Of a DNA stretch of 64,000 nucleotides, positions 9,920 to 11,029 are shown piece by piece. Within the stretch, counting starts at the first letter, position 1. Every line of letters begins with the position of its first letter. The DNA lies in the NCBI GenBank assembly GCA_903935335.1, contig CAIZRG010000029.1, forward strand, positions 5,406 to 69,405, read 5' to 3'. The position numbers and the translations under genes are program-made. The notes beneath the pieces were generated by a model. That model was not told the DNA's origin and made no database searches. It saw only the letters and a list, made by a program, of their open reading frames with translations. The stretch is from Oligoflexia bacterium (GTDB lineage: Bacteria > Bdellovibrionota > UBA1018).

Positions 9920-11029
9920 TCAGGAGCTTTCGAGTAGCCGCTCCAAAATTTCAGTAAAAACGGGAGTTTGGATGATTTCTTCTGCTTTTTGTTTGAAGAG
10001 ATCTGTGGGAACACACCCAGCTCCTGCTAAGTTATAAAGCAATAAATCACCCCCAAAATAATTTGAAACTTTTCTGAATCCTTGGCCTGTACGACAAGTG
10101 GCTTGCCATTCACCAAAAACTGAATCTAAAGTAGTATCGAGATTATATAAATTGCCTTCAATTTTTTGATCTTGCTTGCCGAAAAACTGTACCGTTCCTT
10201 GCATCTGAAAGAGATTGCCACCTAAACGAACCCAACCATTACTCATAAAAAATAAGGAAACTGTATCTTTCTCAGGATCAATCTTCTCTAAAAACTGATT
10301 CATGAGATGGACCACTGGATTCATACATGGCTCATCAGATACCAAGCACCCAGCATCAATACAAAAGAGAACTTCCCCTTCAGCAACTTCAACTCTTTCA
10401 GCTCTATGCACAGGAGAGACCGAACAAGAACCACAAACCACCGATGCGAGTGACACGGAAGGGTCTGTCTCAGTGCTAAAAGACCGCAAAGAAGTCCCCT
10501 GAGGAATCATCTGAAACCAAGGGTTCCATCCGTGAACTTCAGCTACGACAATTCGCAAGGGTCTAAGGGTATCCTTCATGCAAAATGCAGGTATTACGTT
10601 GTCTCCTGCAATTTTTTGTTTGAACCGAGTCCGAATCCTGCTTGCACTGTAAAATTTTGAGAAAACTTCTTCTAAAAAATCAACTACTTCAGAAGCTGAC
10701 CAGGGATCAGAACTACCGGGCTTAGGAAGAAGCAGCATCGAGCCAATCATCGAACCAATCGAAGAACCCCAAACTTCATCAAAAAGCTCATAAATACGTT
10801 TTCCGCTTTGCTTTTCCAAATGATTCAGGACTGTGGCTGAAATAATACCTGTAGCTCCCCCACTTGGAAGAACTAAAATCCGATAATCTTGAGCCTCCAC
10901 CCTCACTGGATGCATAAAAAACCCAATCCATGTGATTAAAAGGACTGCTATTGAGCTATTCTTTGTAAAGAAATAAGTAACCACCCTGATCAATATCCTG
11001 CCACATTTGTGATTCCCTGCCAAATTCAA
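9920..11029 (-). CDS. Secreted patatin-like phospholipase
   Basis: Oxyanion-hole-like LPSGGATG, nucleophile elbow GSSIG (GxSxG) and downstream DAG/DGG-type motif (IDAGCL). Long N-terminal region with hydrophobic h-segment …SSIAVLLITWIGFF…VEA. The 5' end overlaps the USP-like gene by 74 nt; the true start is uncertain. Confidence 0.65.
   Translation of the reverse strand: MNLAGNHKCGRILIRVVTYFFTKNSSIAVLLITWIGFFMHPVRVEAQDYRILVLPSGGATGIISATVLNHLEKQSGKRIYELFDEVWGSSIGSMIGSMLLLPKPGSSDPWSASEVVDFLEEVFSKFYSASRIRTRFKQKIAGDNVIPAFCMKDTLRPLRIVVAEVHGWNPWFQMIPQGTSLRSFSTETDPSVSLASVVCGSCSVSPVHRAERVEVAEGEVLFCIDAGCLVSDEPCMNPVVHLMNQFLEKIDPEKDTVSLFFMSNGWVRLGGNLFQMQGTVQFFGKQDQKIEGNLYNLDTTLDSVFGEWQATCRTGQGFRKVSNYFGGDLLLYNLAGAGCVPTDLFKQKAEEIIQTPVFTEILERLLESS

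Follow-up and report, generated by a model that had tools for sequence, protein, structure and literature searches.

Two adjacent genes on a contig of an Oligoflexia bacterium (GenBank assembly GCA_903935335.1, contig CAIZRG010000029.1, positions 5,406 to 69,405 of the forward strand) raise the question of whether a patatin-like lipase and a ubiquitin-specific protease (USP)-like lipoprotein act together against eukaryotic cells. These 64,000 nucleotides are referred to below as the window, and positions are those of the window unless another locus is named. A preliminary description of the window had read the lipase gene, a minus-strand open reading frame (ORF) at 9920-11029, as a secreted phospholipase of the ExoU/VipD type that overlaps the USP-like gene and forms with it a two-gene effector module. 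We consider it moderately probable that the gene instead encodes a Sec-exported, single-domain patatin acyl hydrolase that is part of a repertoire of exported hydrolases acting against foreign lipids.

Domain, motifs and fold of the patatin-like protein

The ORF comprises 369 codons when counted from TTG 11029. The most probable coding sequence runs on the minus strand from GTG 10984 (9920..10984) to a TGA stop codon at 9920-9922, and its identification draws on PF01734, the family alignment and an AlphaFold (AF2) model. In a Pfam profile search, the product matched PF01734 (Patatin) over residues 52-227 with an E value of 3.7e-14 and 53.8 bits, above the curated cutoff of 27.7 bits, as the preliminary description had led us to expect.

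The patatin domain is defined by three motifs (PMC12871566). The three initially picked out in the window protein (G-G-x-x-G, GSSIG, and DAG) are all present, and their key residues are invariant in the family. The oxyanion-hole motif is the glycine-rich S56-G-G-A-T-G61 (10847..10864, minus strand), a form of GGGx[K/R]G without the basic residue. The nucleophile elbow is G88-S-S90-I-G92 (10754..10768, minus strand), in which S90 is the predicted catalytic serine, and D225-A-G227 (10349..10357, minus strand) supplies the predicted catalytic aspartate, D225, of a Ser-Asp dyad.

The window protein was aligned with nine relatives. In this ten-member alignment S56, G57, G58, A59, S89, S90, G92, D225, and G227 are invariant, and T60 is nearly so. 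Throughout the family the first glycine of GGGx[K/R]G is replaced by serine and the Lys/Arg by threonine. The first glycine of GxSxG is Cys or Ser in some members, and the aspartate motif reads D-A-G, or D-P-G in two members, rather than D-G-A/G. A profile of the family alignment nevertheless places these motifs on the GGGAKG, GTSTG, and DGG of CapE, a cUMP-AMP-activated phospholipase of solved structure, and also on those of plant patatin.

The AF2 model has a mean predicted local distance difference test (pLDDT) score of 87 and a predicted template-modelling score (pTM) of 0.84. The best 21 matches in the PDB found with Foldseek are all patatin folds and cover the whole length of the model; CapE/CapV, plant patatin, and iPLA2-beta lead, with E values from 7e-13 to 2e-7. 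VipD (3.6e-6), PlpD (5e-6), and ExoU (about 1e-3) follow, with template-modelling (TM) scores of 0.25-0.29 for VipD and ExoU. Because of the Pfam match, the invariant motifs, and the confident model with its fold matches, we predict that the product is a genuine, catalytically intact Ser-Asp acyl hydrolase of the patatin type and of a compact, single-domain kind.

The absence of the Lys/Arg of GGGx[K/R]G throughout the family, together with the near-invariance of T60, suggests that the substrate may differ from that of the classical phospholipase A patatins. Neutral-lipid PNPLA enzymes are likewise not known to have this Lys/Arg, which is a lead rather than a test.

Start codon and export signal

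In public records of the identical sequence the gene callers place the start at ATG 10915, which gives a protein of 331 amino acids with no signal peptide, no overlap with the USP gene, and a spacer of 40 nt after the USP stop codon at 10956-10958. This spacer is free of stop codons in the patatin frame, where it encodes SSIAVLLITWIGFF followed by MHPVRVEA|QDYRIL, with an AXA-type site in the same register as in the homologues. When the segment is shuffled, 1.7% of the shuffles give a stop-free stretch this hydrophobic; among random 42-mers of the window the figure is 0.7%. Seven of the nine homologues carry a hydrophobic leader of 21-29 amino acids with an AXA-like end directly before (D/E)YRILVLPSGGA; the Sec-type leaders of the homologues all end at DYRILVLPSGGA. 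Given these leaders, the open spacer in the same register, and the rarity of the hydrophobic stretch, ATG 10915 likely truncates the protein. Patatin homologues P0004 and P0008 also look truncated at the N-terminus.

The predicted Sec signal peptide, of the signal peptidase I class, spans 10892..10984 (minus strand), or residues 16-46 of the long ORF. It would consist of an n-region VTYFFTK, the h-region SSIAVLLITWIGFF, and a c-region MHPVRVEA, with cleavage before Q47-D-Y-R-I-L. In the AF2 model the leader is a helix set apart from the domain. Most of the family conserves four cysteine columns (199, 202, 223, and 235, numbered as in the window protein). At a fifth column the window protein has Ser231, and all other members have cysteine. 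This conservation fits an oxidising location outside the cytoplasm, and we take it as consistent with export. The export signal initially placed ahead of the patatin domain is thus probably real, as judged from homology and hydropathy.

The spacer contains no canonical start codon for the h-region. The nearest starts that would supply an n-region are GTG 10984 and TTG 10993, both on the minus strand, while TTG 11023 and TTG 11029, the maximum of the ORF, would give an unusually long leader. Shine-Dalgarno motifs are weak or absent for many genes of the window and do not pick the patatin start. With GTG 10984 the start of the patatin gene would lie within the USP gene and overlap its 3' end by 29 nt (10956..10984); TTG 10993 gives 38 nt, TTG 11023 gives 68 nt, and TTG 11029 gives 74 nt. 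The overlap of 74 nt first reported is the mechanical maximum, obtained from the longest ORF. The genes probably do overlap, as claimed, but the length was overstated and is likely to be 29-38 nt.

Comparison with known patatins

The window patatin shares with plant patatin (Pat17) and with CapE/CapV an alpha/beta/alpha fold over its whole length, a Ser-Asp dyad set in GxSxG and D-x-G, a glycine-rich oxyanion loop, and a size of 300-370 amino acids. It differs from them in its N-terminal Sec signal, in a glycine loop (SGGATG) without Lys/Arg, and in having no cyclic-nucleotide synthase as a partner; identity to these proteins is 13-20%.

The likeness to CapE/CapV bears on whether the public annotation is right after all, in which case the protein would start at ATG 10915 and act in the cytoplasm, for instance as a nucleotide-activated defence phospholipase of the CapV/CapE type. 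Gene callers did pick this ATG, and the top matches of both the structure and the hidden Markov model (HMM) searches are CapE and CapV of cyclic-oligonucleotide-based anti-phage signalling systems (CBASS). However, in NCBIfam the protein reaches 35.7 and 48 bits for CapV/CapE where the cutoffs are 200 and 400, the homologues carry signal peptides, and the frame upstream of the ATG encodes a hydrophobic h-region with an AXA-type site. The genes adjoining the patatin are those for the USP and a GAF-PAS protein, with no CD-NTase/cyclase or other defence gene among them. We therefore regard a cytoplasmic enzyme as very unlikely. Its assignment to a defence system was rejected, since the PADLOC matches are to generic phospholipases (at most 52 bits), the NCBIfam matches fall below threshold, and partner genes are missing.

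ExoU of Pseudomonas, delivered by a type III secretion system, and VipD/VpdC of Legionella, delivered by a type IV system, have the same three patatin motifs and act on the membranes of another organism. ExoU and VipD are multidomain proteins of 560-690 amino acids with chaperone-binding and with bridging/membrane-localisation or Rab5-binding domains; for these effectors and VpdC the route of delivery is an injection system and the activator is ubiquitin, phosphatidylinositol 4,5-bisphosphate, or Rab5 (PMC12871566). In contrast, the window protein has at most 369 amino acids, the patatin fold fills the whole mature protein, and a Sec leader is predicted. Its single domain, its Sec signal, and its weak similarity to ExoU and VipD (the E values and TM scores given above) do not fit the ExoU/VipD-type assignment that had been suggested.

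PlpD of Pseudomonas aeruginosa, a type Vd protein, resembles the window patatin in being a Sec-dependent exported lipase. PlpD carries, as fused parts, a POTRA domain and a translocator that is a 16-strand beta-barrel, whereas in the window ORF nothing follows the patatin fold and there is no barrel gene next to it. From sequence and model, the window patatin belongs to none of the ExoU/VipD, CapV/CapE, and PlpD subfamilies.

The patatin family and a probable second copy

About ten patatin clusters were found among the 5.8 billion proteins searched, and the relatives come from metagenome-assembled genomes (MAGs) of Oligoflexia and Bdellovibrionia. As far as these searches reach, the sequences describe a small, secreted family confined to bacteria of the Oligoflexia/Bdellovibrionia type. 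A probable paralogue, P0003 (locus L004, 8001-9056), is 42% identical to the window patatin and was found in the same samples. The tetranucleotide signature of L004 correlates with that of the window at r 0.976, and two parts of the window correlate with one another at 0.982. Because of this match and the shared samples, the same organism probably carries a second copy of the secreted patatin, with only one of the two beside a USP gene. Our literature searches brought up no work on patatins, or on enzymes of the USP type, from either Oligoflexia or Silvanigrellales.

The neighbouring USP lipoprotein

Directly upstream of the patatin gene and in the same orientation lies the gene for a lipoprotein USP-family (C19) cysteine peptidase of 375 amino acids (10956..12083, minus strand), identified by PF00443, an AF2 model, and Foldseek/HMM matches. 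The Pfam match to PF00443 has an E value of 1.3e-18. The lipobox Cys23 (12015-12017, minus strand) is nearly invariant and is followed by a disordered, low-complexity linker to about residue 45. Both results agree with the USP-like lipoprotein gene of the preliminary description, and the product is predicted to be a lipoprotein of the outer-membrane type.

When 1.84 billion representative proteins were searched exhaustively with HMMER, 31 proteins of the USP family, the query among them, were recovered at E <= 1e-10, and most of these have 340-440 amino acids. Named relatives are from Pigmentibacter ruber and Fluviispira vulneris. Together with the Oligoflexia and Bdellovibrionia relatives of the patatin, they make an uncultured bacterium of the Bdellovibrionota the most likely source of the window; a scan of the GTDB representative genomes with the patatin motifs did not bring up the species itself. 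A metagenome scan with the USP alignment gave 87 pattern hits, none of which was confirmed. The motifs are the Cys box GNTC66FANS (Cys66 at 11886-11888, minus strand), QxDA, the His box GH329Y, and H344-N-D346. Across 14 aligned relatives the Cys box with C66, Q164, D166, G328-H329-Y, H344, and D346 are invariant.

The AF2 model of the USP (pLDDT 83.6) aligns over 345-380 columns with the catalytic domains of eukaryotic USP30, USP18, USP2, USP46, and USP7 in Foldseek and HMM comparisons; the fold matches to USP30, USP18, USP2, and USP46 have E values of about 1e-15. The family thus appears to consist of about 30 bacterial lipoproteins in which the eukaryote-type USP domain is complete and the Cys/His/Asp triad is intact, and because of this fold and triad a eukaryotic target for the USP is a reasonable supposition.

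In a 2023 paper, TssM of Burkholderia was called the only known bacterial deubiquitinase of the USP class, and one without Fingers (PMC10719079). TssM and the window protein are both bacterial USP-family cysteine peptidases on a Sec/type II secretion (T2SS)-type, non-injection route of export (PMC10719079). TssM has an Ig-like N-domain and no Fingers subdomain, whereas the window protein is a lipoprotein whose model aligns with the full eukaryotic USP. TssM was absent from the top 50 Foldseek hits for the USP model, and no sequence relationship between the two closer than general membership in the USP family was seen.

Other loci and the origin of the pair

We searched all fetched loci with both families using tblastn. 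The two families occur together in only three loci (L001-L003), all identical to the window, and each of the 10 other patatin loci and 6 other USP loci contains one family. The pairing is therefore lineage-specific and found only in this organism. These public copies are identical across the junction of the two genes and give no signal of selection from polymorphism.

The patatin genes lie in varied surroundings. Paralogue P0003 (L004/L005) is found among hypothetical proteins with unusually large intergenic gaps; P0007 and an Oligoflexia MAG patatin (L006, L010-L012) are beside UDP-glucose dehydrogenase and an oligopeptide ABC system, with an acyltransferase near the patatin of L010; and a Bdellovibrionia MAG patatin (L007) follows two unannotatable ORFs. 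P0009 begins 5 nt past a deoxynucleoside kinase gene, P0004 adjoins ExbBD-TonB, and P0005 (L015) is 13 nt downstream of a fatty-acid desaturase gene.

Among the USP loci, the Pigmentibacter gene lies between ada-like and ogt-like genes, and on two MAG contigs of about 30% GC two or three USP paralogues follow one another in tandem (L017, 4758-7065; L019, 3685-7164). The arrays adjoin an APP1_cat gene and flagellin genes. The closest homologue of the window USP, P0014 (L020, 7194-8273), has 41% identity and is followed 48 nt downstream by a gene for a Fic-domain protein; the next closest, at 38%, is found among flagellar and housekeeping genes. We considered whether the USP might have a variable effector partner and rejected this: the Fic protein after P0014 lacks a signal peptide and, judged by its sequence, is a cytoplasmic Fic of the ordinary kind, and the other USP loci have housekeeping neighbours or tandem USP copies.

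For the USP and patatin genes, the GC content, the GC content at third codon positions, and the leave-one-out codon-usage likelihood have z values of -1.4 to +1.6 within the 37 genes of the window. The composition of both genes is native. A check of composition had been proposed with horizontal acquisition in mind; with |z| at most 1.6 and neither protein matching the plasmid collection, such an acquisition was rejected. A synteny test anchored on Ppx for an insertion of the USP-patatin pair yielded one relative only, at 22% identity.

These results bear most directly on the proposal that the USP and the patatin form a dedicated, co-evolved module directed at eukaryotes, in which the deubiquitinase strips host ubiquitin, the phospholipase damages or remodels host membranes, and ubiquitin is perhaps the cofactor of the lipase, as in ExoU or VpdC. 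The genes are adjacent, co-oriented, probably overlapping, and have no terminator between them; both products would be exported (lipobox Cys23 in one and a predicted signal peptide in the other); and the USP has the full eukaryote-type fold and triad. To our knowledge, bacteria have no ubiquitin. Relatives of the USP are found in Pigmentibacter ruber and in F. vulneris, the latter isolated from a human wound (PMC10645651), and Spirobacillus cienkowskii is a pathogen of Daphnia in the Silvanigrellales (PMC12321486). TssM is a precedent for Sec/T2SS-dependent secretion of a USP-type effector (PMC10719079).

However, the pairing is missing from every other locus of either family, which does not bear out the two-gene module as originally proposed, and the phyletic spreads differ; neither Pigmentibacter nor Fluviispira turned up in a genome scan with the patatin motifs. 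Accessory domains that bind ubiquitin or Rab are missing from the patatin, which is only weakly similar to ExoU and VipD, the composition of the genes is native, and no evidence was found of a eukaryotic host for the organism. A literature search on the sample and assembly accessions yielded nothing of use on its habitat. The proposed module thereby loses its main comparative support and the ExoU/VipD analogy, and we judge it quite unlikely.

Transcription and surroundings in the window

In the promoter and terminator scan, no terminator-like hairpin was found between the USP and patatin genes, nor between the patatin gene and the GAF-PAS gene that follows it. The latter (8915..9877, minus strand) starts at ATG 9877, 42 nt past the patatin stop, and encodes 320 amino acids with Pfam matches to GAF and PAS_3. 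A weak candidate for a sigma-70-like promoter, TTGAAT-17-TAAAAT (12094..12122, minus strand), is located in the 244-nt gap upstream of the USP gene, and another promoter-like site (9885-9914, minus strand) in the gap between the patatin and GAF-PAS genes; the number of promoter-like sites in the region is not above shuffle expectation. On spacing, the USP and patatin genes are likely co-transcribed from the gap upstream of the USP gene, with the GAF-PAS gene possibly a third member of the transcription unit.

The TAAAAT hexamers of these sites (12094-12099 and 9885-9890, minus strand), which resemble -10 elements, end 8-11 nt before the ATGs of the USP and GAF-PAS genes. Because of this proximity and the many genes without a Shine-Dalgarno motif, this organism may commonly make transcripts with very short leaders or none. 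Across the ppx stop codon, where the 244-nt gap opens, lies a tandem direct repeat, TATGAATTTA(T/C)AT x2 with a spacing of 14 nt (12307-12333), which is part of an imperfect palindrome of 21 nt; it could be the binding site of a regulator. An open stretch of 52 codons without a canonical start (IHIYKFIAVYGIRSRIWLLHTAGNPGSFLLLQDDGSLAIFMEDRPIWTAETN; 12170-12327, minus strand) follows the ppx stop in frame. By eye it looked like a fragment of a bulb lectin, which was rejected since it had no Pfam match even at E 1; it may be a gene remnant.

The pair is flanked by Ppx, AsmA, UvrD, GlmS, and GlmU on one side and by a PHO4 phosphate transporter and a PhoU-like (PhoU_div) gene on the other, in keeping with the housekeeping region initially described. 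Such flanks raise the alternative that the patatin is itself a housekeeping lipase of the periplasm or envelope that remodels or recycles the lipids of the organism's own membranes, perhaps in connection with phosphate, and that the USP is next to it by chance. Ppx, PHO4, and PhoU_div agree with this, as do the varied housekeeping contexts of the family, including the desaturase and acyltransferase loci, and the loss of Lys/Arg from the glycine loop, which hints at a non-canonical lipid substrate. Yet a sporadic and narrow distribution with a paralogue is atypical of a core envelope function, and only one or two of about seven loci have a lipid-metabolism context. The window contains 5 matches to the E. 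coli-type Pho-box consensus against 5.6 expected, none of them near the genes, and a link to a phosphate regulon was rejected on that consensus. We consider a housekeeping lipase unlikely.

Fatty-acid beta-oxidation enzymes of the FadA/FadB type are encoded at 44160-47559, 33 kb from the patatin gene. They could use the products of the lipase, which is compatible with the exported hydrolase that we propose and not support for it.

The 64-kb window contains no injection-system genes. A cluster resembling type I secretion (49949-55943, minus strand) consists of an OEP outer-membrane factor, an HlyD-type adaptor, and an ABC exporter; it is preceded by an ORF of 587 amino acids without a Pfam match, which could be its substrate. 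The window opens with the initial 104 nt of a leftward-oriented 16S rRNA gene (positions 1-104). The tRNA-Ala(TGC) gene (3337-3412, minus strand) lies about 3.2 kb upstream of the 16S gene and not in the usual 16S-23S spacer, and two sigma-54 activator genes are located between the two.

Discussion

The patatin would be synthesised with a Sec leader that is removed after A46, and outside the cytoplasm it would fold into a mature protein of about 320 residues. S90, activated by D225, would attack the acyl ester of a lipid while the backbone amides of the SGGATG loop stabilise the oxyanion, and a fatty acid would be released. This could take place in the periplasm, or extracellularly after further export or release in vesicles. 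The enzyme would serve to attack or scavenge foreign membrane lipids from prey, host, or detritus, and would be a degradative exported hydrolase rather than an injected effector in the style of ExoU/VipD. In this lineage it would be expressed together with a surface-tethered USP. The phylum to which the organism most likely belongs is rich in predators and host-associated forms; because of this, the sporadic and narrow distribution of the family, and the paralogue, we favour a secreted degradative role.

Several points weigh against this interpretation. The upstream patatin start is only the probable one, and with the ATG 10915 of the public callers the product would be a cytoplasmic protein whose gene does not overlap that of the USP. 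The support for export comes from homology and hydropathy, and the case for co-transcription consists of short spacing and the lack of a terminator match. No secretion system beyond Sec was identified near the two genes. The family lacks the Lys/Arg of GGGx[K/R]G, and the substrate may not be a phospholipid. That the lipase is aimed at eukaryotes is at most a supposition, and with the pairing unique to this organism so is a functional link between it and the USP.

A more far-reaching reading dispenses with the accessory domains of ExoU and VpdC. The lipid-anchored USP and the secreted patatin would together be a ubiquitin-linked weapon at the cell surface or outside the cell; on the bacterial surface or on vesicles, host ubiquitin would be engaged by the USP, and ubiquitin or another host factor would switch on a compact patatin. 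We hold this to be highly improbable. If true, an uncultured lineage of Oligoflexia would be an unrecognised associate or pathogen of eukaryotes, and patatins would have a new, minimal mode of activation.

For the exported hydrolase that we favour, the consequences are more modest. The lipase is an ordinary kind of enzyme, though a divergent member of a small and undescribed family of secreted patatins, and the public gene call probably drops its signal peptide, with the result that an exported enzyme looks cytoplasmic. The USP lipoprotein family, which occurs in bacteria of the Oligoflexia/Silvanigrellales type, is more interesting than the lipase. Should ubiquitin be a substrate of these USPs, several little-known lineages, some of them from human infections, would become candidates for interaction with eukaryotes, and the co-expressed lipase would be the natural next candidate.

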